A DNA stretch of 58,824 nucleotides from Acidobacteriota bacterium (GCA_019244185.1 JAFATB010000001.1:1-58824); one strand, 5' to 3'. Positions 15,679 through 28,798 are shown, numbered from the stretch's first letter. Notes: generated by a model from the sequence alone, not told the origin. Translations and numbers: made by a program.

Positions 15679-17045
15679 TCGTCATGAAATTCGGCGGGAC
15701 GTCGGTGGGCGATGCGGATCGCGTCGCGAACGCCATCGACATCGTCGCGGAACGGCGGCACCTGCAGCCGGTGGTCGTCGTCTCCGCGCTCGCCGGCGTC
15801 ACGAACGATCTCGTCGCTGCGGGCGAAGCGGCGCGCGCACAGGACCCGCGCCGCGTCAAAGAGATCATCGAAGGCGTGCGCCAGCGCCACGAAGACGTCG
15901 CGCTGCGGCTCGTGCAGCACAAGTCCGATTTCCTCGAGGCATTCATCAAGCAGCTCGACAAACAGATCGAGGAGATCGACACGATCCTGCGCGGCATCGC
16001 GCTCCTCGGCGAGATCACGCTCCGCGCGCGCGACAAGGTGATGTCGATCGGCGAGCGCCTCTCGTCGGTGCTCTTCGCGTACTCGATGATGATGCGCGCG
16101 CTGCCCGGCGAGTACGTCGCGGCGGAAGATGTCGTCATCACGGACGATCACTTCTGCGGCGCGTCGCCGCTGATGGACGACACGCGCGCGGCCGCGCAGC
16201 GCGCGCTCGCGCCGCTGCTCGAACGCAACCGCATCGCGGTGATGGGCGGCTTCATCGGCCGCACGCGCGAAGGCGCGACGACGACGCTCGGCCGCAACGG
16301 CTCCGACTACAGCGCGGCCATCGTCGGCGCCGCGCTCGGCGCGGACGAAGTGCAGATCTGGACCGACGTCGACGGCCTGCTGACGTGCGATCCGCGGCTC
16401 GTGCCGTCCGCGCGCGTCATCGACCGTTTGTCGTTCGACGAAGCCGCGGAGCTCGCGCAGTTCGGCGCGAAGCTCCACCCGCGCACGCTCGAGCCGGCGG
16501 TCGAGGCGAACATCTCCGTGCGCGTGCTCAACACGCACAACCCCGCATCGGCCGGTACGCTGATCACGCGCGCCGGCGCTGACGCGAGCGCAGGTCCGCG
16601 CTCGATCGCGCGCAAGAAGAACGTCGCCGTCGTGCACGTGACGTCGAACCGCATGCTCGGCGCGCACGGCTTTCTGGCGCGGCTCTTCGCCGAGTTTGAA
16701 GCGCTGGCGATCTCCGTCGATCTGATCGCGACTTCGGAAGTCTCCGTGACCGTCACCGTCGACGAAAAGCAGAACCTCGGCGCGCTGCAACAGAAGCTCG
16801 AGCAGATCGCCGAGCAGGTCGAAGTGATCGACAGCCAGTGCATTCTCGCCGTGGTCGGCCAGAACCTCATGTCCGACGCGCGCGTCGGCGCGCGCGTGCT
16901 GGAGGCGCTGCGCGGGATGCCGGTAAAGATGATCTCCCTCGGCCGCTCCGGTCTCAATCTCAGCATCGTGGTCGACGACGCGAATGCCGACGCCGCGGTG
17001 CAAACGATCCATCACGCGCTGTTCGAGGCGCCGGTGGCCGTATGA
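15675..17045 (+). CDS. lysC: Aspartate kinase
   Basis: KFGGTSV, TTTLGRNGSDYSA, WTDVDG, two ACT domains; TTG start overlaps the asd stop (alternative ATG 15684). Confidence 0.95.
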   Translation: MIVMKFGGTSVGDADRVANAIDIVAERRHLQPVVVVSALAGVTNDLVAAGEAARAQDPRRVKEIIEGVRQRHEDVALRLVQHKSDFLEAFIKQLDKQIEEIDTILRGIALLGEITLRARDKVMSIGERLSSVLFAYSMMMRALPGEYVAAEDVVITDDHFCGASPLMDDTRAAAQRALAPLLERNRIAVMGGFIGRTREGATTTLGRNGSDYSAAIVGAALGADEVQIWTDVDGLLTCDPRLVPSARVIDRLSFDEAAELAQFGAKLHPRTLEPAVEANISVRVLNTHNPASAGTLITRAGADASAGPRSIARKKNVAVVHVTSNRMLGAHGFLARLFAEFEALAISVDLIATSEVSVTVTVDEKQNLGALQQKLEQIAEQVEVIDSQCILAVVGQNLMSDARVGARVLEALRGMPVKMISLGRSGLNLSIVVDDANADAAVQTIHHALFEAPVAV

Positions 17046-17707
17046 AGCTCGCGCTGCACGGCTACGGGAAGATGGGGAAGACCATCGAGCGCGTCGCGTC
17101 CGAGGCGGGACACGAGGTGGTGTGCATCCTCGACGTCGATCGCGACGAGCCGCTCGCAGGGGCGGAAGTGCTGATCGACTTCTCGCACGCCAGCGCGCTC
17201 GATCGCGCGCTCGGCCTCGCATGCGAGCAGCACGTCGACCTCGTCATCGGCACGACCGGCTGGAACGAACGCATCGACGACGTGCGCGCGCGCGTCGCCG
17301 CCGCCGGCATCGGCTGCGTCTACGCGTCGAACTTTTCGCCCGGCGCGAACGTGATGTTCGCGCTCGCGCGCCGCGCGGGAGAGCTCTTCGGCCGCTTTCC
17401 GCAGTACGCCGCGGGCATGGAAGAGCGGCATCACGCGCAGAAGAAAGATGCGCCGAGCGGCACCGCGCTGAAGATCGCCGCGGAGGTGCGCGAAGGCAGC
17501 GGCGGCGCGCTCGAGCCGTCGATCGTTGCGTCGCGCGTCGGCGCGGAGTTCGGGCTGCACACGCTCTTCTTCGACTCGTCCGACGACGTGATCGAGCTCT
17601 CGCACCGCGCGCGCGGCCGTGAGGGATTCGCACGCGGCGCGGTCTTCGCAGCAGAGCGGGTGCGCGGGCGCAAAGGCCTCGTGCGATTCGACGAGCTATT
17701 GGAGTGA
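17042..17707 (+). CDS. dapB: 4-hydroxy-tetrahydrodipicolinate reductase
   Basis: GYGKMG, IGTTG, ASNFS, ERHHAQKKDAPSGTA. Confidence 0.95.
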   Translation: MKLALHGYGKMGKTIERVASEAGHEVVCILDVDRDEPLAGAEVLIDFSHASALDRALGLACEQHVDLVIGTTGWNERIDDVRARVAAAGIGCVYASNFSPGANVMFALARRAGELFGRFPQYAAGMEERHHAQKKDAPSGTALKIAAEVREGSGGALEPSIVASRVGAEFGLHTLFFDSSDDVIELSHRARGREGFARGAVFAAERVRGRKGLVRFDELLE

Positions 17708-17711
17708 AACG

Positions 17712-18587
17712 ATGTTTCGTGGCGTCGGAACGGCCCTCATCACCCCCTTCACCGATTCCGGCTCATTCGATGAAGCCGCGTACCAGCGCTTCGTCGACTG
17801 GCAGATTGAAGAAGGCATCAACTTCCTCGTGCCGTGCGGCACGACCGGCGAGAACCCGGCGCTCACTGCCGGCGAGCACCAGCGCGTCGTCGAAATGACG
17901 GTGAAGACCGCGAACGGCCGCGTGCCGGTGCTCGCGGGCGCAGGCAGCAACGGCACGCCGCGCGCCGTCGAGCTCGCGCAACAAGCCGCCGACCTCGGCG
18001 CGGACGGCCTCCTCACCATCACGCCGTACTACAACAAGCCGACGCCCGACGGCCTGCTCCGCCACTTCGGCGCGCAGGCGGAAGCGGTCGAGAAGCTGCG
18101 GCCCGGCTTCCCGATGATCATGTACAACGTGCCGGGACGCACGGGCCTCAACATGAGCGCGGAAACGACGCTGCGCATGGCGCGCGAGATCCCGAACATC
18201 GCCGGCGTGAAGGAAGCGTCGGGCAACATGGAGCAGATCCTCGCCATCCTGCGCGATCGTCCCGACGGCTTTCTCGTGCTGAGCGGCGACGACGCGTGGA
18301 CATTGCCGCTGCTCGCCGTCGGCGCGGACGGCGTCGTCTCCGTCGCGAGCAACGAGGTGCCGCGGCTCATGCGCGAGCTCGTCGACAACCGCGACGTCGC
18401 CATTCACAACCGCCTGCTGCCGCTCCTCACCGGCAACTTCCTCGAATCGAATCCCGGACCGGTGAAGGCGGCGCTGAAGATGATGGGCGTGCTGCAAAGT
18501 GATACGTTGCGCCCGCCGCTCGCGCCGCTCACCGCCGCGAGCAGCGAGAAACTGCGCACGATTCTGAAGGACTGCGGACTGCTGTGA
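17712..18587 (+). CDS. dapA: 4-hydroxy-tetrahydrodipicolinate synthase
   Basis: [38 protein letters not shown]. Confidence 0.96.
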
Positions 18588-19408
18588 TCACGATCGAAGA
18601 CCGCGTCAAAGCCCTCACGCCGAACACCGACCGCGTCGAAGCGGTGAAGACGATCGGCCTCTTTCTCACGGAGCTCGAGAAGGGCACCGCGCGTGCGGCG
18701 CAGCGCGACGCCGACGGTAACTGGCAGGCGCAGACGTGGGTCAAGCAGGGCATCCTGGCCGCGTTCCGCTTCGGCGTGCTCGCCGAGTTCGCGTCGGGCG
18801 CGCTCTCGTTCATCGACAAGGACACGATCCCCGCGCGGCGCTTTAAGATCGCCGACGGCGTGCGCATCGTTCCGGGCGGCACGTCCGTGCGGCGCGGCGC
18901 GTTCGTCGCGAAAGGCGTGGTGATGATGCCGCCGGCGTTCGTGAACGTCGGCGCGTACGTCGACGACGAGACCATGGTCGACTCGCACGCGCTGGTCGGC
19001 TCGTGCGCGCAGATCGGCAAGCGCGTGCATCTTTCCGCGGCCGCGCAGATCGGCGGCGTGCTCGAGCCGGTCGGCAACGTGCCGGTCGTCATCGAAGACG
19101 ACGTCGTCGTCGGCGGCAACTGCGGCATCTACGAAGGGACGATCGTCCGCGCGCGCGCGGTCATCGGCGCGGGCGTGGTGCTCACCGGCTCGACGCCGGT
19201 GTACGACGTCGTGCGCGGCCAGATCTATCGCCGCACCGCGGAGCGGCCGCTCGAGATTCCGTACGGCGCGGTCGTGATTCCCGGCGCGCGGCCGATGAAA
19301 GGCGCGTTCGCCGAACAGCACGGGCTGCACGTCGCCGCGCCGATGATCGTCAAATATCGCGACGAGAAGACCGACTCGTCGACCGCGCTCGAGGACGCGC
19401 TGCGGTAG
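18584..19408 (+). CDS. dapD: Tetrahydrodipicolinate N-succinyltransferase
   Basis: [30 protein letters not shown] hexapeptide-repeat signatures. Confidence 0.94.
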
Positions 19409-19434
19409 TCCGGAGCGAGGCGAGGAGCGCAGCG

Positions 19435-20634
19435 TTGCACATCCTGCAACTCGCCACGCGCGTGCCGTGGCCCGCGAACGACGGCGGGCGCGTGGCCATC
19501 GTGCAGATCACGCGCGGTCTCGCCGCCGGCGGCCGCGACGTCGACCTCCTCGCGCTCAATCCGCGCGAACAACGCGAGCACGTCGAGACCGCAGGCGCGG
19601 CGCTCTCGCCGGCGCGCGTCGATGCGGTCGACGTCGAGACCTCCGTCGCGCGCGGCGTCGTGCGTGCGCTGCGCGACCGCGCGCCGCTCCTCCCGTCGCG
19701 TTACGCGGCGAGCGCCTTCGCGCGCGTGCTGCGCGAGCGGCTGCGCGCGACACGCTACGACGTCGTGCACGTCGAGAGTCCGTATCTGCTCCCGTATCTG
19801 CCGCTGATCCGCGCGGAGTCGCGCGCGAAGGTCGTGATGCGCGCGCAGAACGTCGAGTTCCACGTCTGGGAAGCGCGCGCGCAGCAGGCCCGCGGCGTAC
19901 GGCGTCTCGCGTTGCAGCGCGTGGCCGCGTCGCTGCGCGCGTGGGAGATCGCGCGCATCAACGAATGCGACGCGCTGCTGCCGATCTCGCGCGCGGACGC
20001 CGAGGAGTTTCTCGCGCAGGGATGCCGCGTCCCGCTGCACGTGCTGCCGTGCGGCATCGAAGTCGGTGCGGCGCCGGCGCCGCCGGGCGATCCGTTCGCG
20101 TTCTACTTCGTCGGGGCGATGGAGCACGCGCCGAATGCCGACGCCGCGCGCTGGCTCGTGAACGAGCTCTGGCCGCGCGTCGTCGCGCGCGAGCCGCGCG
20201 TGCGCCTCACCATCGCCGGCAGCCGCTTCCCGCGCGCGCTGCAGGAATCGCTCGCCGCGCGCGGTGCCGCGATCGCCGCCGACGTTCCCGATCTCGCCGC
20301 GTTCGCCGCGCCGTTCGGCGCGATGCTCGCGCCGCTCTTCACCGCCAGCGGCATGCGCGTGAAAACGCTCGAAGCGATGGCTCTCGGCAAGCCGGTCGTC
20401 GCGAACGCGCTCGGCGTCGGCGGCATCGACGTCACTCCGAATGTGCACGCGTTCATCGCCAACGACGTCGATGCCTTCGCCGATGCGGTCGTCTCGTGCG
20501 CGCGCGAGCCCGAACGCGCGCGCAATGTCGGACTCGCGGGGCGCGCGCTCGCCGCGGAACGCTACGACGTCCATCGCGTCACCGGCGGCCTCGTCGACTT
20601 CTACGAACGATTGGTGCGAGACTCCGCGCGATGA
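19435..20634 (+). CDS. Glycosyltransferase family 4 protein
   Basis: ILQLATRVPWPANDGG, FVGAMEHAPN, SGMRVKTLEAMALGKPVV; TTG start inferred. Confidence 0.88.
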   Translation: MHILQLATRVPWPANDGGRVAIVQITRGLAAGGRDVDLLALNPREQREHVETAGAALSPARVDAVDVETSVARGVVRALRDRAPLLPSRYAASAFARVLRERLRATRYDVVHVESPYLLPYLPLIRAESRAKVVMRAQNVEFHVWEARAQQARGVRRLALQRVAASLRAWEIARINECDALLPISRADAEEFLAQGCRVPLHVLPCGIEVGAAPAPPGDPFAFYFVGAMEHAPNADAARWLVNELWPRVVAREPRVRLTIAGSRFPRALQESLAARGAAIAADVPDLAAFAAPFGAMLAPLFTASGMRVKTLEAMALGKPVVANALGVGGIDVTPNVHAFIANDVDAFADAVVSCAREPERARNVGLAGRALAAERYDVHRVTGGLVDFYERLVRDSAR

Positions 20635-21743
20635 AGGTCGCGGATCGCCTCAAGGACGTCGAGCTCTCGCTCATCCGCCAGATCAACGCGCTGGCGACGC
20701 CGCTCTCCGTGAACCTCGGCATCGGCGAGCCGAACCTCGCGCCCGACGGGCACTTTCGCGAGCTCGCCGAGCGCGCGGCGCAGGTGCCGTGGCAATACAC
20801 GCCGAACGCCGGCACGCTCTCGCTGCGCAAGCGCCTCTGCGAGGGCACGCTGTTCGATCCGAAGACGGAGGTCTGCGTCACCGCGGGCACGCAGGAGGCG
20901 CTCTTTGCCGTCTTCACCGCGTACGTCGAGCCGGGCGACGAAGTGCTCGTGCCGAATCCCGGCTTCCTGTCGTACGCGACGCTCGCGAAGATCCACGGCG
21001 CGGAGGTCGTCACCTACGATCTCGATCCGCCCGACTGGCGCATTGATATCCAGGCACTGCGCAAGCGCGTCACGCCGAAGACGAAGCTGATCATCGTCAA
21101 CTCGCCGTCGAATCCGCTCGGCAGCGTCGCCGACGCGCCGACGCTCGACGCCGTCGCCGCGCTCGGACCGCTCGTCGTCAGCGACGAGGTCTATCGCGAG
21201 ATCTGGTACGACGCGCCGCCGCCGACGATGCTCGGCCGCGGCGCGAACGTCGTCACGCTGAACGGTCTCTCGAAGAGCCACGGCATGACCGGTCTGCGTC
21301 TCGGCTGGATGCACGCGCAGGCGGACGTCATGAAGCCGATCATCACCGCGCACCAGTACATCGCCACGTGCGCGTCGGCGTTTTCGCAAGGGCTCGCGGA
21401 GCTGATCTTCGACGACGCGGAATGGAACCGCACGTGGCTCGCGGCGATGCGCGCGCAGTTCGCGGCGCAGCGCGAGGCCGCGTTGTATGCGATTCGTCAC
21501 GAGCTCGAGATCGAGCTGGAGCCGCCCGCCGGCGCGTTCTACGCGTTCGCCGCGGTTCCCGCGTGCGACAGCATCTCGTTCGCGAAGACGCTCGCCACCG
21601 ACGCCGCGGTGCTGGTGATCCCCGGACTCGCCTTCGGCACGCGCGGGCAGGGGTTCATCCGCATCTCGTACGCGGCGCCGGTCGAGCAGATCACGGCCGG
21701 CATCGAGCGCATCGGACGCTGGCTGCGCGCGGCCGGGATCTGA
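20631..21743 (+). CDS. PLP-dependent aminotransferase class I/II (candidate N-succinyl-DAP aminotransferase)
   Basis: NLGIGEP, NSPSNPLG, SDEVY, LSKSHGMTGLRLG; ends the dap operon. Confidence 0.88.
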   Translation: MKVADRLKDVELSLIRQINALATPLSVNLGIGEPNLAPDGHFRELAERAAQVPWQYTPNAGTLSLRKRLCEGTLFDPKTEVCVTAGTQEALFAVFTAYVEPGDEVLVPNPGFLSYATLAKIHGAEVVTYDLDPPDWRIDIQALRKRVTPKTKLIIVNSPSNPLGSVADAPTLDAVAALGPLVVSDEVYREIWYDAPPPTMLGRGANVVTLNGLSKSHGMTGLRLGWMHAQADVMKPIITAHQYIATCASAFSQGLAELIFDDAEWNRTWLAAMRAQFAAQREAALYAIRHELEIELEPPAGAFYAFAAVPACDSISFAKTLATDAAVLVIPGLAFGTRGQGFIRISYAAPVEQITAGIERIGRWLRAAGI

Positions 21744-21809: not shown

Positions 21810-22715
21810 ATGGCTGCACGGGCCCACCACAAATCCGAAGAGCGTCTGCCGGTTCCGCCACCGAAAGACTCGGTCGCGTCGTCCGAGGTGTCGCTGTATC
21901 GGAACGTGCTCAAGATCAAACAGGAGCACGAGCTCGAGGATCTCGGCATCTCGTTCTTCGATGCGGAGTCGACGATCCAGTGGTCTTACAACGCGGACCA
22001 CTACTTCCACGCCGCGTCGACGATGAAGCTCGCGGTGCTCCTCGGCGTCTTCCGCCAGGTCGACCGCGGCGAGCTGGCGCTGGACGCCCCGGTGCACGTG
22101 CGCAACCGCTTCACGAGCATCGTGAACCAGGAGCCGTTCATGCTCGACCTCGGCCGCGACGCCGATCCCGACGTCTACGGCCACCTCGGCAAAACGCTCA
22201 GCGTGCGCGAGCTCTCCTACTGGATGATCACGAAGTCGAGCAATCTCGCCACGAACCTGCTCGTCGAAGTGGTCGGCATTCCGACGATTCAGCTCGCGCT
22301 CGACGAGCTCGAGATCGACGGCATCCGCGTGCTGCGCGGCGTCGAAGATCAGCGCGCGTTCGAGGCGGGGCTCAACAACGAAGTGACCGCGAACGGATTG
22401 CTCAAACTGCTGCGGCTCGTCGCCGACGGCAAGGCGTATTCGCAGAAGGCGTGCGACGAGATGCTGTCGATCATGCTCGACCAGCAGTACCGCAGCGGCA
22501 TCCCCGCCGGACTGCCGAAGGAAGTGCGCGTGGCGCACAAGACCGGCAACATCTCGACCGTGCATCACGACGCCGGCATCGTCTACATCGAAGGGCGCAA
22601 GCCGTACGTGCTCGTGATCCTCACGCAGTTCGCCGCCGAGACCGGCCGCGGCACCGCGGTGGCCGACGTCTCGCGCGATATCTTCAACGCCCTCGCCGGA
22701 AGCGCGTATGAATGA
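21810..22715 (+). CDS. Class A beta-lactamase-related serine hydrolase, no signal peptide
   Basis: SxxK (ASTMK), SxN (SSN), HKTG, HDAGIV; N-terminus hydrophilic. Confidence 0.9.
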   Translation: MAARAHHKSEERLPVPPPKDSVASSEVSLYRNVLKIKQEHELEDLGISFFDAESTIQWSYNADHYFHAASTMKLAVLLGVFRQVDRGELALDAPVHVRNRFTSIVNQEPFMLDLGRDADPDVYGHLGKTLSVRELSYWMITKSSNLATNLLVEVVGIPTIQLALDELEIDGIRVLRGVEDQRAFEAGLNNEVTANGLLKLLRLVADGKAYSQKACDEMLSIMLDQQYRSGIPAGLPKEVRVAHKTGNISTVHHDAGIVYIEGRKPYVLVILTQFAAETGRGTAVADVSRDIFNALAGSAYE

Positions 22716-23412
22716 GGAGGATGTGGAAGATCAGGGCTTGAAAGTCGTCGATGCGTTCGACCTCGACGACGAACTGCGTGCCGTTCTGAAGCCGGGCGAG
22801 ATGGTGCGCGACGCGCAGGGGCGCCGCCATCGTCTGCCGCGCTATTTCTACGAGATCCCGTCGCACGAGGTCGCGCTCAAGACGCGGCTCACGCCGCATT
22901 TCGGGCTCAACGAATTCGTGCTGGCCGATCTGAAGGAAGCGTCGCGCCTGCACGACTATCCGCGTTACGTCCCGTGCGCGGTGCGGCTGCTCGCGTTCTA
23001 CCTCGAGCAGTTCCGGCATGCCGCCGGCGCGTCGGTGCACATCGCCGTCAACGGCGGCTATCGCTCGCCGTCGCACAAGCTCTCGCAGAACGCCACGCCG
23101 CACATGTGGGGCACCGCCGCGGACGTCTATCGCATCGGCTCGAACATCCTCAAGACGAAAGAAGCGATCGAAAAATACAACGAGCTCGCCGAGGATGTGA
23201 GCGACGAGATCCACGTGCTGCCGTATGGCCACGTCACCGGTCGCCATGCCGACGATCACGTCCATCTCGACCTCGGCTACATCACGCTGATCCCGCGTGA
23301 GATCAGCGAGGATCGCATGGAGCAGCCTCAGGAGAACCGGCCGCGGTTCGCCTTCGAGGAGCGGCGGCGGGTGGATCGGCGGGCGGCGACGGTGCCGGCT
23401 GGCGAGGAGTAA
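22708..23412 (+). CDS. Peptidase M15 (Hedgehog/DD-peptidase fold) Zn metallopeptidase, no signal peptide
   Basis: PHFGLNEF, GGYRSPSH, HMWGTAAD, HVHLD motifs; overlaps upstream gene by 8 nt; GGA-rich context. Confidence 0.82.
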   Translation: MNEEDVEDQGLKVVDAFDLDDELRAVLKPGEMVRDAQGRRHRLPRYFYEIPSHEVALKTRLTPHFGLNEFVLADLKEASRLHDYPRYVPCAVRLLAFYLEQFRHAAGASVHIAVNGGYRSPSHKLSQNATPHMWGTAADVYRIGSNILKTKEAIEKYNELAEDVSDEIHVLPYGHVTGRHADDHVHLDLGYITLIPREISEDRMEQPQENRPRFAFEERRRVDRRAATVPAGEE

Positions 23413-23434
23413 TCGGGGACGCGCGCGCCAACTC

Positions 23435-23450
23435 CGGCGTAGCGTTTGCT
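23435..23450 (+). promoter_or_regulatory. sigma54 (-24/-12)-like promoter upstream of PafA-like gene
   Basis: CGGCGTAGCGTTTGCT = GG-N10-GC with TTGCW, intergenic and correctly oriented. Confidence 0.55.
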
Positions 23451-23503
23451 TAGACCCCCTCTGCAGTTGCCGTTTGCCCCAGTCCTCACTTCCGGAGTCT
23501 GCG

Positions 23504-25162
23504 TTGCCATCTTCCGACAGGAAAACCGCTCTCGATAGAGAAGCCCTTCGTCTGCAGAGGGTTAAGCTCGACATGCCCGTCATCGGCATGGAGTCGGAGT
23601 TCAACGTCTGGCTCGACGAGGTCGAGATCAATCCGGAGACGTACTGGAAGCATCCGAGCGCGTTCATCGACCGTCCGCTGCTCACCCGCGAAAAAACTTC
23701 GCTGCAGCTGCCGACCGGCGGCGCCGTCTATTTCGACCGCGGCGTCATCGAGGTCGTGACGCCCGTCATCGAGCTCGCGCCGCAGTCGACCGCGCGCATG
23801 GTGCGCAACCTGTGGGAGCAGATCGGCTTCGTGCGCGATCAGCTCACGAACTGGGGCAAGAAGACCGGCCACACCGTGCGCCTCAAGGCGTACAGCAGCC
23901 ACTACAACATCACCTACGAGATTCCGAAGTCGCAGCAGACGCGCACGCGCAACGAGAAAGCGCTGGCGCTGCTGCTCGCGTACATCCTCCCCGTGCCGGT
24001 GATGCTCGTCGCCTCGAACCGGCGCTCGACCGGCGTCGGCGTGCGGCCGCGCGGCGGACGCATCGAAGTCACCGTCGACTTCACGCCCGATCCCGGCCTC
24101 ATGATCGCGGCGGCCACGCTCATCGTCGGCATCGTCCGCGAAGTCATCTCGTGGCCGTCGTACGACCTGTCGATGCTCGAGAAGCTGCCGATCCCCGTGA
24201 TCGCGGGCGTCGTGCCCGGCAAGCACACGACGCGCAAGGGCTGGCTGACGAAAGACTTTCACTACGAGCAGAGCCCGTATACCGCGGACGTCAATGCGCC
24301 GCTGTGGACGACGCAGTTCGGCGACATGAAGTCACTGCGGCAGATCGCAAAGGAAACCGCGTGGTTTTTCCGGAAGTCGATCCGGCGGTACTCCGACCCG
24401 TTCAGCTTCCGGCTCCTCTTCGCGATCCTCGACGGCCGCGCGCCGTCGCTGCTCGAGCTCATCGATCGGCCGAGCGCGTACGAGGACGTCGGACGCCTCT
24501 GCCGCTGGGGCATGGTCATTCACGAGCTGAAGAACTACGAGTCGGAGATGCGGCTCCTCGCGCCGTGGCGCGAATGGAACGGCGAGTCGATCGACGAGTA
24601 CGTCATCGAACGCCAGCACGCGCGCGAGAAACATCAGACGGAGATGGCGAACGTGAGCGCCGAGGTCCCGCGCGCGCGAACGCGCTCGCTGCGCGCGGCA
24701 TGCGCGAAGACCGACGAGGCGAAGCTCTCGAACGATCTGCAGCCGCGCGCCGTGCAGGCATCGCCGAAGCGGAAGGCGCTGCTGTCGCGCCGCCGCAGCG
24801 ATCGTCCCGGCAAGCTCGTGCCGCGCCGGCCGTCGCAGTATCTCGACCGCCGCGGCACGTCGCTCCTCGCATCGAACAACAACGGCAACGGTCAGGGCGC
24901 GGCCGAACGCCGCGCGAGCCCCGACCGCCGCCACCACGACTACACGATCGCCTTCCCCGACCGCCGCCTCACCCGTTCGGCGTACGAGAAGGTGTTCCTC
25001 AAGCTCGTCTCCGGCAGCCGCCTGCGCGTCGGCAACGACTTCTACAAGCCGATCGGGATGAAGGGCTGGTACCACGCCGTCTTCCGCCGCGAGTCCGACG
25101 GCGCGGAGAAGCTCCTGAGTATCGATCAGCTGCTGAAGAAGATGCAGGACTGGACGTCGTAA
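23504..25162 (+). CDS. PafA/Dop-like (glutamine synthetase/glutamate-cysteine ligase fold) carboxylate-amine ligase with Arg-rich C-terminal extension
   Basis: IGMESEF (GhExE), LPTGGAVYFDRGVIEVVTP (cf. PafA/Dop L.NG.R.Y.D..HPEY.T.E), SSHYNITY (cf. GCHENY), RPRGGRIEV. Start either TTG 23504 (GGAG 6 nt upstream) or ATG 23573. Confidence 0.72.
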   Translation: MPSSDRKTALDREALRLQRVKLDMPVIGMESEFNVWLDEVEINPETYWKHPSAFIDRPLLTREKTSLQLPTGGAVYFDRGVIEVVTPVIELAPQSTARMVRNLWEQIGFVRDQLTNWGKKTGHTVRLKAYSSHYNITYEIPKSQQTRTRNEKALALLLAYILPVPVMLVASNRRSTGVGVRPRGGRIEVTVDFTPDPGLMIAAATLIVGIVREVISWPSYDLSMLEKLPIPVIAGVVPGKHTTRKGWLTKDFHYEQSPYTADVNAPLWTTQFGDMKSLRQIAKETAWFFRKSIRRYSDPFSFRLLFAILDGRAPSLLELIDRPSAYEDVGRLCRWGMVIHELKNYESEMRLLAPWREWNGESIDEYVIERQHAREKHQTEMANVSAEVPRARTRSLRAACAKTDEAKLSNDLQPRAVQASPKRKALLSRRRSDRPGKLVPRRPSQYLDRRGTSLLASNNNGNGQGAAERRASPDRRHHDYTIAFPDRRLTRSAYEKVFLKLVSGSRLRVGNDFYKPIGMKGWYHAVFRRESDGAEKLLSIDQLLKKMQDWTS

Positions 25163-25661: not shown

Positions 25662-25671
25662 CATTGAAGTG

Positions 25672-26334
25672 ATGACCACTCTCGCCACCGCCGTCCCGCT
25701 GCCTGCCGAACCGCCGTCGGACGAAGAACTCGTCGCGCGGATCGTCGCCGGCGACGCCGCGCTCTTCGAGATCCTCATGCGCCGCTACAACCAGCGCGTC
25801 TACCGCGCCGTGCGCGCGGTCCTGCGCGGCGACGACGAGGTCGAAGACGTGATGCAGCAGGCGTATCTCAACGCCTACCAGCACCTCGGCCAGTTTCAGG
25901 GGCGCGCGCGTTTCTCGACGTGGCTCACGCGCATCGCCGTCAACGAAGCGCTCGCGCGCCTCCGCCGACGCGGCCAGCACGAAGACGCAGGAGAACCCGA
26001 CGCGATGATCCGCCTCGTCGACGAGAGCCAACCCGATCCCGAACGGCAGACGGTGACGTCCGAACTGCGCGACGTCCTCGAGCGCGAGGTCGCGGCGCTG
26101 CCCGACGCGTTCCGCCTCGTGCTCATCCTGCGCGACGTCGAAGGGCTCAGCACCGCGGAAGCGGCGGCAACGCTCGAGATCTCCGAGGACAACGTGAAGA
26201 CGCGCCTGCATCGCGCGCGCACGCTGCTGCGCGACAACCTCTACCGCCGCGCCGGCGTCACGCTCGACTCGCTCTTCGTCTTCGGCAACGCGCGCTGTGA
26301 TCGCGTGGTCGCGGCCGTCATGGCAAAGCTGTAA
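25672..26334 (+). CDS. ECF RNA polymerase sigma factor
   Basis: Region 2 (EDVMQQAYL, FSTWLTRIAVN), region 4 (LRDVEGLSTAEAA..VKTRLHRAR), C-terminal FVFGNARCDRVV. Confidence 0.94.
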   Translation: MTTLATAVPLPAEPPSDEELVARIVAGDAALFEILMRRYNQRVYRAVRAVLRGDDEVEDVMQQAYLNAYQHLGQFQGRARFSTWLTRIAVNEALARLRRRGQHEDAGEPDAMIRLVDESQPDPERQTVTSELRDVLEREVAALPDAFRLVLILRDVEGLSTAEAAATLEISEDNVKTRLHRARTLLRDNLYRRAGVTLDSLFVFGNARCDRVVAAVMAKL

Positions 26335-26373
26335 GCGCGAAACCCGCGCGTCCGCGCGCCGTACTCAGTCCAC

Positions 26374-26847
26374 ATGCGACGCGCACTGCTCGTTCCGCTG
26401 CTCCTCCTCGCCATCCACGCCTCCGCGCAGAACGCTGCGCCGCCCGACGAGAAGACGCTCACCGCCACGATCACGGCGCTCGATGCGAAGCTCTTCGACG
26501 CCTACAACCGCTGCGACATGGATACGTTCGCGTCGTTCTTTCCGGAGAAGTTCGAGTTCTACCATGACCAGGGCGGCCTCGAAACCGACCGCACCGGAAT
26601 GATCGCGTCGCTGCGCAAGTACATCTGCGGCAAGGTCACGCGCGAGCTCGTCCCCGGCACGCTCGAGGTCTACCCGATGAACGGCTTCGGCGCCGTCGAG
26701 ATCGGCGTGCACCGCTTCCACCATCCCGGCCACGACGACACCGAGCCGCTCGGCGAAGCGAAGTTCGTGCACCTCTGGCAGTACAAGGACGGCGTCTGGC
26801 AGCTGACGCGCGTGATCAGTTTCGATCACCACGCCGTGCCGCGCTGA
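26374..26847 (+). CDS. Secreted NTF2-like (DUF4440-type) protein
   Basis: Signal peptide; LFDAYNRCD, EFYHDQGG, AKFVHLW, WQLTRVISFDH. Confidence 0.82.
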   Translation: MRRALLVPLLLLAIHASAQNAAPPDEKTLTATITALDAKLFDAYNRCDMDTFASFFPEKFEFYHDQGGLETDRTGMIASLRKYICGKVTRELVPGTLEVYPMNGFGAVEIGVHRFHHPGHDDTEPLGEAKFVHLWQYKDGVWQLTRVISFDHHAVPR

Positions 26848-26854
26848 CCGCGCG

Positions 26855-27091
26855 TCACTCCTTCGAGCGACGCTCCCAGTCTTCGCGCAATGCCTGCTGC
26901 GGCGAGCGATTTTGCAGCCGCGGCTTCGACAGCACCGTCGCGAGCAGATCGGCAACGCCCCACGAGAGAAAGGTCGTCGCGGCGATGGTGAGAAATTGCG
27001 AGACGGTGTGCTGTTCGAGGAGCACGAACAGCGTGAGCGGCACGACGACGCCCATCACGATGAGCCCTACGAAAAAGCGGAGGCCGGACAC
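26855..27091 (-). CDS. Small two-TM hypothetical protein (78 aa)
   Basis: Two hydrophobic segments; TACACT 6 nt before GTG. Confidence 0.68.
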   Translation of the reverse strand: MSGLRFFVGLIVMGVVVPLTLFVLLEQHTVSQFLTIAATTFLSWGVADLLATVLSKPRLQNRSPQQALREDWERRSKE

Positions 27092-27140
27092 GCGCGCAGT
27101 GTAGCGCAGCGCGTCCCGCCTTCTCCGCTACGCAGCCGCG

Positions 27141-28067
27141 TTACCGCGCCTGCGCGCCCCCGTCGGGAACCGCGTTCGTCGCCGAAGCATCCTGCGTCGC
27201 GTTCGAGGCGCTGCCCGCATCCGCGACCCGGTTCGAGATACGGCTGTGGAAGTCCTCTTCGAAGTTCTTCACCTTCGAGACGTAGTCGCGAGTTTCGTGG
27301 AACGGCGGCACGCCGTTGAAGCGGAGCACGTTCCCCTCGCCCGCGTTGTACGCCGCGATGACCTTCGTCTCGTTGCCGTCGAAGCGGTCGTGGAGATAGC
27401 GGAGGTACTTTGCGCCGGCGCTGATGTTCTGCGCGGGGTTCGTGAGGTCGCGCGCGCCCATCCAGCGCCCGGTCTTCGGAACGAGCTGCATGAGACCGAT
27501 CGCGCCCGATCCGGATCGCGCGGCGGGACGGAACTTCGACTCCGCCTGCACGACGGCCGCGACGAGCTCGGGACGCAGATTGTTCTTCTTGGCTTCCTGG
27601 TAAATGATCGAGCCGAAGGGCACTTCCTTCTTGAAGAAGTCCTCGCGCACGCTGTCGCTCATCACCGCCAGTTTCTGCGGTGCCGCGGCGATCGCCTTTA
27701 ACGGCGAGCTCGTGGCCGCCTGCAGACCTCCGGCGACGCCGCCCGCGACCTGCGATGCGATCGACTGCGCCGCCTGCAGATCGCCGGCGAGCTCCTGATC
27801 GAGCGAGTCGGCGGGTTTCGCGTTCGCCGCGTTGGCGTTCTGCTGGATCGTGGTCGCCTTCGCCGCGTCGTTGTGCTGCATGATCATCGTCGGGACGCCG
27901 AGGCCGCCGAAGGCTAGCGAGGCGCCGAGCGCCCAGGTGGCGTATTTCTTCCGGAATCCCTGAAATCGGCGGGGACGGACTGCCTCCACTTCGCGCCGCA
28001 ACTGCGCACGATCGAAGTTGTCGAGAAACCGCTCCTGGTACGGCCGCTTCGTCTTCACCTCGGGCAT
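27141..28067 (-). CDS. Membrane-anchored soluble lytic transglycosylase (SLT domain)
   Basis: AVVQAES, GAIGLMQLVP, GAKYL, IAAYNAGEG, ETRDYV; AGGAGG SD; one N-terminal TM. Confidence 0.92.
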   Translation of the reverse strand: MPEVKTKRPYQERFLDNFDRAQLRREVEAVRPRRFQGFRKKYATWALGASLAFGGLGVPTMIMQHNDAAKATTIQQNANAANAKPADSLDQELAGDLQAAQSIASQVAGGVAGGLQAATSSPLKAIAAAPQKLAVMSDSVREDFFKKEVPFGSIIYQEAKKNNLRPELVAAVVQAESKFRPAARSGSGAIGLMQLVPKTGRWMGARDLTNPAQNISAGAKYLRYLHDRFDGNETKVIAAYNAGEGNVLRFNGVPPFHETRDYVSKVKNFEEDFHSRISNRVADAGSASNATQDASATNAVPDGGAQAR

Positions 28068-28099
28068 CGGCGTTCCTCCTGCCTTTGCCGTTACTTATT

Positions 28100-28115
28100 T
28101 GCAATGTGAAAGCCA
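28100..28115 (-). promoter_or_regulatory. sigma54-like promoter for SLT gene
   Basis: TGGCTTTCACATTGCA (GG-N10-GC). Confidence 0.65.
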
Positions 28116-28153
28116 ATCAAATGGCTGAGCCGTAACGAGTTGTATTCCCACTT

Positions 28154-28169
28154 TGGCCCGGCTGCTGCA
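28154..28169 (+). promoter_or_regulatory. sigma54-like promoter for rlpA-like gene
   Basis: TGGCCCGGCTGCTGCA (GG-N10-GC). A TAGAAT hexamer at 28177-82 is an alternative sigma70 signal. Confidence 0.5.
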
Positions 28170-28192
28170 ATCAGCATAGAATCCGGAGCCAG

Positions 28193-28798
28193 ATGTTGAA
28201 AGGAGCGTGGATCGCGCTCGCCGGCCTCCTGCTCCTCGCCCCTGCCATGCACGCGGGCGAGGCGGACGCGCCGGCTGACGACCTGACGCTCGGGCGGCCG
28301 CTGAGCGACTGCTTCACGATGGTCGCTCCGGCCCCGGCAGCCCCGCCGGAGACGCCGAAGCAGCCCGATGCGTTGATGCAACGCTTTCTGCGCTACGCGC
28401 AGCTTGCGCTGAATCACCGTGTCTCCGGACTCGCCAGCTACTACTCCGCCTTCTTCGACGGACGCCGCACCGCGAACGGCGAGATCTACCGCAACAAGCA
28501 GTACTCCGCCGCGCACCTCACGCTTCCGCTCGGCTCATGGATCGAAGTGACGTCGCGCGCGACGGGACGCAAGCTGCGCATGCGCGTCAACGATCGCGGT
28601 CCGTTCGCGCGCAAGTTCGTGCTCGATCTCTCGCAGGCCGCGGCGCATTACCTCGGCGTCGATATCGCCGCGGACCGCTACGTCGACATCCGCGTCATCG
28701 CGCTGCCCGGCGAAGATCCGCTGCCCGCCGGGGTCACCGCTCCGCCCGCGGCGGACACGCAGATCGCGTCGAGCGCGCCCGCGTCCGGCAGCAAGTGA
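28193..28798 (+). CDS. rlpA: RlpA-family (DPBB) lytic transglycosylase
   Basis: ASYY, GRRTANGE, AAHLTLPLG, VNDRGPF, LDLSQAAA; signal peptide; no SPOR domain. Confidence 0.88.
   Translation: MLKGAWIALAGLLLLAPAMHAGEADAPADDLTLGRPLSDCFTMVAPAPAAPPETPKQPDALMQRFLRYAQLALNHRVSGLASYYSAFFDGRRTANGEIYRNKQYSAAHLTLPLGSWIEVTSRATGRKLRMRVNDRGPFARKFVLDLSQAAAHYLGVDIAADRYVDIRVIALPGEDPLPAGVTAPPAADTQIASSAPASGSK

Follow-up and report, generated by a model that had tools for sequence, protein, structure and literature searches.

A conserved three-gene operon in Acidobacteriota joins a Dop/PafA-like GS-fold protein to two wall-peptidase-like enzymes in a genome without a Pup system

We analyzed three adjacent genes in a window of 58,824 nucleotides (nt) from an Acidobacteriota bacterium (GCA_019244185.1, JAFATB010000001.1:1-58824). 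The window has a G+C content of 65-70%, and the genome it belongs to is 98.9% complete. The genes occupy positions 21810-22715, 22708-23412 and 23504-25162, and we call their products g1, g2 and g3. An earlier reading, made from the sequence alone (hereafter the sequence-only reading), had proposed that they encode two cytoplasmic peptidases and an orphan ligase akin to PafA and Dop, and the three co-oriented open reading frames (ORFs) are found at exactly the coordinates it gave, all on the plus strand. g1 (301 residues) resembles class A beta-lactamases and the serine hydrolase PBP-A and is putatively cytoplasmic. g2 (234 residues) resembles the zinc peptidases of the M15/LAS type. g3 is predicted to be a two-domain protein like Dop and PafA, with the glutamine synthetase (GS) fold. 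The genes of g1 and g2 share 8 nt: the bases TATGAATGA are read twice, once as the end of g1 (...Y-E-stop) and once as the start of g2 (M-N).

The third gene starts at TTG 23504, as had been proposed, and encodes 552 residues from there. A GGAG lies 8 nt upstream of this codon, and the ATG starts (M-P...) of seven g3 orthologs, about 23 residues before a conserved PVIGMESEF, align with it. An internal ATG is found at 23573, and two of the same seven orthologs have no Met at the equivalent position. Residue numbers of g3 are nonetheless counted from ATG 23573 (529 residues) throughout, as our alignment and structural model were built with that form.

No Pfam or NCBIfam family matched g3 (in Pfam, none at E ≤ 0.1), and comparison with solved structures by sequence, with the single protein or with a profile, gave no meaningful match. 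The protein has many relatives all the same. Among 8,000 candidates scored, 3,897 were related to g3 at E ≤ 0.001, and all of them are unnamed or called 'hypothetical'; the close ones carry Thermoanaerobaculia or Acidobacteriota labels. Clustering at 50% gave 374 representatives of the family, many of them fragments, from 1.84 billion proteins. The atlas clusters nearest to g3 are commonest in Gemmatimonadota and Acidobacteriota, judged from few labeled members. Full-text searches found no paper on the family, with the supplement of PMC2588565, which lists further ligase families, lying outside these searches.

We modeled g3 with AlphaFold2 from an alignment of 22 family members. The model has a mean predicted local distance difference test (pLDDT) score of 81.8 and a predicted template modeling score of 0.77. 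It falls into a catalytic N-terminal domain, a beta-sheet cradle that also holds the conserved motifs (residues 1-361, positions 23573-24655; pLDDT above 89 for residues 1-320), a disordered Arg-rich linker with RRR, DRR and ERR motifs (residues 362-460, positions 24656-24952; pLDDT below 50), and a small C-terminal domain (residues ~461-529, positions 24953-25162 with the stop codon; pLDDT 94-96 for residues 470-529). Foldseek, run with this model against the PDB, placed PafA first (4bjr_B, 5.4e-8), followed by Dop (~1e-6) and YbdK/GCS2 (2-3e-5); glutamate-cysteine ligase (GCL, 6.6e-3) and GS (at least 1e-3) were farther away. Structural re-alignment gave Z 19.1 for Dop 5lrt, with 337 aligned residues and a root-mean-square deviation (rmsd) of 3.5 over a range covering model residues 1-529. 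It gave Z 18.0 for PafA 4bjr_B (336 aligned) and Z 17.1 for the YbdK-type structure 1tt4 (rmsd 3.5, 253 aligned, model residues 1-311); GCL reached Z 12-14 and GS about 10. A search of 48,161 chains that was independent of Foldseek returned Dop (Z 18.3), PafA (17.6) and YbdK/GCS2 (17.1), then GCL (11.6-14.2) and GS (8-10), with unrelated folds at 6.9 or below. The GS/GCS fold that the sequence-only reading had ascribed to g3 is thus borne out by the structural check, in which PafA, Dop and YbdK come out on top.

We favor Dop/PafA over YbdK as the nearest relatives because about 85 more residues align and because the aligned ranges reach the C-terminal domain. In the Dop/PafA alignments 335-337 residues are aligned, up to model residue 529, and the match of the C-terminal domain is read from these ranges. 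This domain is present in all full-length family members; by itself, it resembles small SH3/KOW-like barrels (Z ~5). Sequence identity to Dop/PafA in the structural alignments is 11-13%. The model shows g3 to be the founder of a family outside Pfam, within the superfamily of ATP-dependent carboxylate-amine ligases that have the GS fold, with Dop/PafA predicted to be its nearest relatives.

Passages of Iyer et al. (PMC2588565) describe the motifs of the GS-fold superfamily as G-h-E-x-E in strand 1, acidic residues in strands 2 and 3, [HD]x[NH] in strand 4, an Arg in strand 5 with another in the preceding loop, and a polar...D motif in strand 6, spaced E-x-[RK]-x2-D or [QH]-x4-D. GMESE, YFD, IEV, HYN and RPRGGRIE (RxRxxRIE), the motifs that had been named for g3, are all present. 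Their residues are strongly conserved: of 159 distinct relatives, at least 97% share each of G5-M-E7-S-E9, Y53-F-D55, E60, H110-Y-N112, R150, R158, R160, R163, E165 and D169. In the model, the residues of the strand-1 to strand-4 motifs lie on the predicted strands 3-14, 51-55, 58-62 and 102-114. The strand-6 spacing of g3 is E-x3-D, and the published pattern is met only approximately. As far as its sequence tells, g3 has retained all the Mg/ATP/acyl-phosphate motifs of the superfamily. One family member departs from this: in P0137 (422 residues, the 22nd g3 member), L-V-S-F-F replaces the metal-binding motif G-x-E-x-E-F, and this protein may be an inactive variant or the product of a sequencing error.

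Both groups of structural relatives share features with g3 and lack others. Like Dop and PafA (PF03136), g3 has the GS-fold beta-sheet cradle and the GxExE and YxD...E..TP motifs, and its small C-terminal domain probably corresponds to theirs. Unlike them, it does not match PF03136, it carries its own disordered, Arg-rich linker of about 100 residues between the two domains, and its neighbors are two peptidase-like genes rather than pup, prcAB and mpa. With YbdK/GCS2 (PF04107; PDB 1R8G, 1TT4) it has the same catalytic domain and motifs in common, but it does not match PF04107, and the C-terminal domain, which the YbdK alignment does not reach, apparently has no equivalent there. A separate, canonical GCS2 is encoded in the genome (contig C14, PF04107 at 1.1e-60).

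The spacing between E9 and D55 is of the PafA type, with no insert of the size of the Dop loop. Of the 21 g3 members measured, 20 have a distance of 46 residues and one has 47. The equivalent spacing in acidobacterial PF03136 proteins is 46-50 in two, which are of the PafA type, and 75-77 in six, which have an insert as large as the Dop loop. A passage in PMC7947786 states that the Dop loop is dispensable for catalysis; the PafA-like spacing is therefore only a mild pointer to a ligase.

The sequence-only reading had called g3 an orphan and had seen no Pup-related gene in the window, and the wider search agrees. The window contains no Pup, Pup-ligase or 20S proteasome gene, ARC/Mpa not being searched for separately. 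In the whole genome, PF03136 (Pup_ligase) had 0 matches, with a Corynebacterium control positive; PF05639 (Pup) had none above the cut-off, the best scoring 13.5 bits (E 0.68). The only match to the 20S proteasome family PF00227 was HslV (281 bits), which is encoded beside HslU. With respect to Pup and the proteasome, g3 is indeed an orphan.

Across the phylum, the g3 family and the Pup ligase family are carried by different genomes. We found g3 relatives in 9 of 301 sampled genomes, one of them weak (E 5.4e-4). The carriers are the genome studied here, all five other genomes of its family, the single genome of a sister family, and two genomes elsewhere. PF03136 was found in 15 of the 301, where its genes adjoin AAA-ATPase-like genes and usually come as two paralogs (L036-L043). 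The two sets of genomes do not overlap (eight g3 genomes, excluding the weak ninth).

The partner proteins resemble enzymes that act on the cell wall. g1 matches the Pfam family Beta-lactamase2 at 3e-51 (174 bits, cut-off 22). Its score against the NCBIfam class A model bla_class_A is 106.9 bits, below the cut-off of 200; although it has the fold, g1 is therefore no standard beta-lactamase. The closest solved relative is the Thermosynechococcus PBP-A Tll2115 (PDB 2J7V, 8e-18). The SxxK, SxN and KTG motifs had been reported as intact, and the orthologs agree: among 122 distinct g1 sequences, 121-122 have S70-x-x-K73, S143-x-N145 and K244-T-G246, with S70, K73, S143, N145, K244 and G246 invariant and S144 and T245 present in 121. 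R176, E179 (121/122), D180 and N190, in the region of the omega loop, are also conserved; E179 is a candidate equivalent of Glu166 of the class A enzymes. g1 thus has its fold and the three motifs in common with Tll2115 and the class A beta-lactamases, and differs from them in having no signal peptide and in falling under the NCBIfam class A cut-off.

The assignment of g2 was harder. The sequence-only reading had described it as an M15-type zinc peptidase; the motifs and a resemblance to a solved M15 enzyme speak for this, but the Pfam score does not reach the threshold. g2 has the motifs GGYRSP, H132-x6-D139 and H184-x-H186, and H123, H132, D183 and H186 are invariant among 105 orthologs. Its match to Peptidase_M15_3 has an E value of 0.0033 (18 bits, under the cut-off of 23.2), and of 24 g2 orthologs, 21 reach E ≤ 0.1 against this family, with 5.1e-6 as the lowest value. 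A profile of the orthologs found a single meaningful match among solved structures: 1LBU (E 0.014), the zinc D-Ala-D-Ala (muramoyl-pentapeptide) carboxypeptidase of Streptomyces albus, family M15A. It aligns VNGGYRSP...H132MWGTAAD139 of g2 to the zinc-site motif of that enzyme. The AlphaFold model of g2 is poor (pLDDT 61), and Foldseek found no match with it. In the Foldseek-independent search of 48,161 chains, the same poor model had 1lbu_A as its top match (Z 5.5, rmsd 3.4, 110 aligned), followed at Z 3.6-4.2 by VanX, the LD-carboxypeptidase DacB, phage L-Ala-D-Glu peptidases, endolysins and Hedgehog. In a protein-language-model atlas, g2 adjoins clusters named 'Peptidase M15A family protein' (score 0.94). 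The fold matches, individually weak but consistent, point in the direction of the LAS enzymes.

g2 and the LAS enzymes, 1LBU included, have the motifs VNGG[YF]RS...H-x6-D and H-x-H in common. Apart from the weak scores, g2 is unlike them in looking cytoplasmic, in having an additional conserved N-terminal region of about 90 residues and, in this lineage, in ending in an Arg-rich tail. The tail motif PRFAFE[ED]RRRx[DE]RR (positions 23341-23382, defined by ortholog comparison) is present in most of the listed g2 orthologs of the Thermoanaerobaculia type and absent from L030; the sequence after it is acidic and variable. We considered a wider role for the motif and dropped it, as the motif is essentially confined to g2 in this genome: its core F.[FY]E[DE]RR occurs elsewhere in one copy, in an unrelated ORF.

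Both the g2 tail (PRFAFEERRRxDRR here) and the g3 linker (with the series RRRxDR...DRR...ERR...DRR) are disordered segments rich in [DE]RR. The linker is found in g3 members of the Thermoanaerobaculia type and in a paralog, and is missing from distant members of about 400-430 residues. Because the distant clade keeps the trio and has neither segment, the tail motif and the linker are lineage additions. Docking, nucleic-acid binding and ligand binding are possible roles for such segments.

Neither peptidase appears to be exported. Within the first 45 residues, the Kyte-Doolittle(10) value peaks at 0.65 in g1 and at 0.93 in g2, far under the values of two secreted-type control proteins encoded nearby (RlpA-like, 2.85; DUF4440, 3.17). 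The frames open upstream of g1 and g2 are 22 and 30 codons long and non-hydrophobic, too short for an upstream extension to supply a signal peptide. The absence of signal peptides that had been claimed for both proteins thus stands by this measure, and from their sequences both peptidases look cytoplasmic.

We then asked how often the three genes occur together. Among orthologous loci from whole genomes, g1-g2-g3 was found at 7 of 7, among them a locus of a different order and one of a different class (g3 42% identical). We also surveyed a close set, made up of the 80 best loci from species-representative genomes, in which the 73 loci with at least 2.1 kb upstream were counted as informative, and a distant set of 80 metagenome loci whose g3 is 47-55% identical and without the long linker, in which the 47 with at least 1.9 kb upstream were informative. 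Both peptidase genes were present at 66 of the 73 close loci, 65 of them in the order g1-g2-g3, and the distant clade had g1-g2-g3 in order at 47 of 47. The seven close loci too short to judge include four with part of g2 at the contig edge. L138, L166 and L180 are the distant loci examined at which each of the three genes was called separately; here a few bases are shared by g1 and g2, and the distance from the end of g2 to the start of g3 is at most about 20 nt. Eight long distant-clade loci showed no conserved small ORF or fourth gene, and their flanking genes differ. The proposal of a ligase-plus-hydrolase module is upheld by this neighborhood survey, and we conclude that g1-g2-g3 is a conserved, translationally coupled cytoplasmic operon.

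A few loci are arranged differently. At L102, g1 and g2 are inverted and lie downstream of g3. At L120, which lacks g2, g1 abuts a g3 that begins near residue 100, possibly because of a deletion or an assembly join. The 648-residue protein P0155 was considered as a g2-g3 fusion and set aside, because its parts are joined via unrelated sequence and it looks like a frameshifted read-through.

Two further features to which the sequence-only reading had attached meaning did not survive the comparison of loci. One is the position of the trio directly after genes for diaminopimelate (DAP) synthesis. In the window, lysC, dapB, dapA, dapD, a GT4 glycosyltransferase gene and a class I/II aminotransferase gene, identified with Pfam, occupy positions 15693-21743 on the plus strand and lie outside the module. 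dapD and the aminotransferase gene lie upstream of the trio at 41 of 52 close loci and at 0 of 80 distant-clade loci; being absent from the distant clade, this adjacency reflects lineage history and is not part of the module. The other is the C-terminal Glu of both peptidases, suggested as a ligase donor. Only 44 of 70 g1 and 25 of 73 g2 orthologs end in Glu, and the frequency of this residue in g1 can be explained by the overlap with the start codon of g2, since the same bases encode both, and not by function.

Some observations on the surroundings of the trio stand apart. The GT4-type glycosyltransferase gene (19453-20634) lies within the row that runs from lysC, dapB, dapA and dapD to the aminotransferase gene. 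Downstream of the trio come DoxX on the minus strand and then envelope genes at 25669-28798: an ECF (extracytoplasmic function) sigma factor, a DUF4440 protein with a signal-like N terminus, a minus-strand SLT lytic transglycosylase and an RlpA-like DPBB (double-psi beta-barrel) protein. The linkage of these genes with the trio is not kept at other loci. The PADLOC defense models matched none of g1, g2 and g3.

Because the genome is without a tagging system, the trio probably acts on a small peptide of the cell-wall type. The specific account that we prefer, to which we give a probability of roughly 0.45, is that the three proteins act in the cytoplasm on a small peptide of the peptidoglycan-stem type, which ends in D-Ala and contains a gamma-glutamyl group. 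The substrate could be a UDP-MurNAc-peptide or a stem peptide set free by wall turnover. Its C-terminal D-Ala residues would be removed by g1, acting like a serine DD-peptidase, and by g2, acting like a zinc carboxypeptidase of the M15A type. The part of g3 would be to phosphorylate a carboxylate, probably that in the gamma position of Glu, and then to form an amide with an amine such as that of DAP or Lys. Alternatively, g3 might break this gamma-glutamyl amide, in the manner of Dop; of the two activities, ligase seems somewhat the better guess.

Several observations weigh against this account. It is the family resemblance of g1 and g2, and nothing besides, that points to a peptidoglycan-type substrate, and the family assignment of g2 is weak (Pfam score under the cut-off, pLDDT 61, best Z 5.5). 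D139 of g2 (positions 23122-23124), a predicted zinc ligand, is Asp in 70 and Asn in 35 of the 105 orthologs, a departure from 1LBU and the LAS enzymes, and at position 184, His is found in 99 and Gln in 6. It is thus uncertain whether all members use standard zinc-peptidase chemistry, and part of the family, to go by these residues, may bind metal differently or be non-catalytic. By Z alone, PafA (17.6-18.0) and YbdK (17.1) are tied as relatives of g3, and hhalign, run with the g3 alignment against nine acidobacterial PF03136 proteins, returned a probability of 15% (E 0.0017) over 76 columns, which span G-h-E-x-E and G-G-x-x-Y-x-D-x-x-x-x-E-x-x-T-P. Neither peptidase is encoded at 6 of the 73 close loci. 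The genome moreover holds a g3 paralog (G000:C17:53030-54370; L002, L035), 60% identical over the N-terminal domain, which has the same invariant residues, the Arg-rich linker and the C-terminal domain but no adjoining g1 or g2. As this paralog and the six loci have no peptidases, a g3-type enzyme can work without them. The TonB-like and Xaa-Pro-peptidase-like neighbors of the paralog were considered as informative context and rejected, as they are kept only in the two closest genomes. Finally, the genome has two LdcA-type S66 peptidases and seven genes of the Mur ligase family. We had considered that the trio might make up for a missing step of wall synthesis or recycling; with these genes present, no gap is evident.

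Other substrates would account for parts of the data. The trio could act on a small cytoplasmic metabolite that contains a gamma-glutamyl group or a D-amino acid, for instance a thiol, a solute or a secondary metabolite, with the wall not involved; g3 would then be a small-molecule ligase of the GCS2 type, and the hydrolases would mature, recycle or detoxify its product. The near-equal Z scores of YbdK and PafA fit this idea, as does a paralog that stands without peptidases. Passages in PMC2588565 argue that GS-fold ligases without a Pup-like neighbor make peptide metabolites, and neither a small ORF nor a fourth gene is conserved beside the trio. On the other hand, the enzymes most closely related to either hydrolase have acyl-D-Ala-D-Ala wall peptides as their substrates, a canonical GCS2 is already present in the genome, and the C-terminal domain of g3, judged from the aligned ranges, is found in Dop/PafA and not in YbdK. 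We regard a metabolite substrate as possible but not probable. Remodeling of wall precursors, as in vancomycin-type (Van) systems, appears doubtful. The peptidases would destroy D-Ala-D-Ala termini while g3 ligated another amine or amidated a stem carboxylate, and the outcome would be a lineage-specific peptidoglycan chemistry or an intrinsic antibiotic tolerance. The products of vanA, vanX and vanY form the same combination as the trio, with a ligase, an M15 peptidase of the cytoplasm and an enzyme like a DD-carboxypeptidase; g3 has kept all its ligase motifs, and the trio is present in 5 of 5 other sampled genomes of the genome's own family, as would be expected of a housekeeping trait. Yet no sensor-regulator or alternative-substrate gene is linked to it, and the fold of g3 differs from that of the ATP-grasp ligases of Van systems.

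Protein tagging, in spite of the kinship with Dop and PafA, is unlikely. In such a Pup-independent system, a tag consisting of a protein or a peptide would be joined by g3, through a carboxylate, to lysines of target proteins, or removed from them, and the peptidases would process it. What speaks for such a system is that Dop and PafA are the top structural matches, in alignments that reach the C-terminal domain, that the E9-to-D55 spacing is like that of PafA, and that the [DE]RR-rich motifs common to the g2 tail and the g3 linker could be docking elements. It is opposed by the genome, which has no Pup-like gene and no proteasome or Pup_ligase partner; by the flanks of the trio, which have no conserved small ORF; by the C-terminal Glu of g1 and g2, which is not conserved; and by the distant clade, which keeps the trio while tail motif and linker are missing. 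The chance of this is slim. A bolder form of the idea, in which g3 would be a third, Pup-independent branch of Dop/PafA that puts a D-amino-acid-containing peptide on protein lysines or takes it off, or links stem peptides to proteins, with the two peptidases editing the tag, is just as much a long shot. If true, a third branch would mean that bacteria have a further, new way of modifying proteins, and it would serve as a living model of the system from which pupylation arose.

The account we prefer, in which a stem-type peptide is processed in the cytoplasm, has counterparts in known pathways. In Escherichia coli, LdcA, MpaA and Mpl are enzymes of stem-peptide recycling. The trio resembles them, as well as VanA-VanX-VanY, in combining D-Ala trimming in the cytoplasm with an amide ligase or amidase. 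It differs from them in fold, as those systems use ATP-grasp, Mur ligase and M14 enzymes, and it has no regulators in common with them; we do not claim that the trio belongs to either system.

To our knowledge, no role outside the Pup-proteasome pathway has been described for Dop and PafA, and how they originated from small-molecule gamma-glutamyl ligases is an open question. Here we describe a sizeable, unannotated family that has the shape of Dop/PafA and intact catalytic residues, that occurs without Pup, and that is nearly always accompanied by two wall-peptidase-like enzymes without export signals. The identity of the substrate would reveal either a so far unknown step of wall-peptide metabolism in the cytoplasm of abundant soil bacteria or a new amide-bond modification. 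With either outcome, the family would provide an outgroup for the evolution of pupylation.

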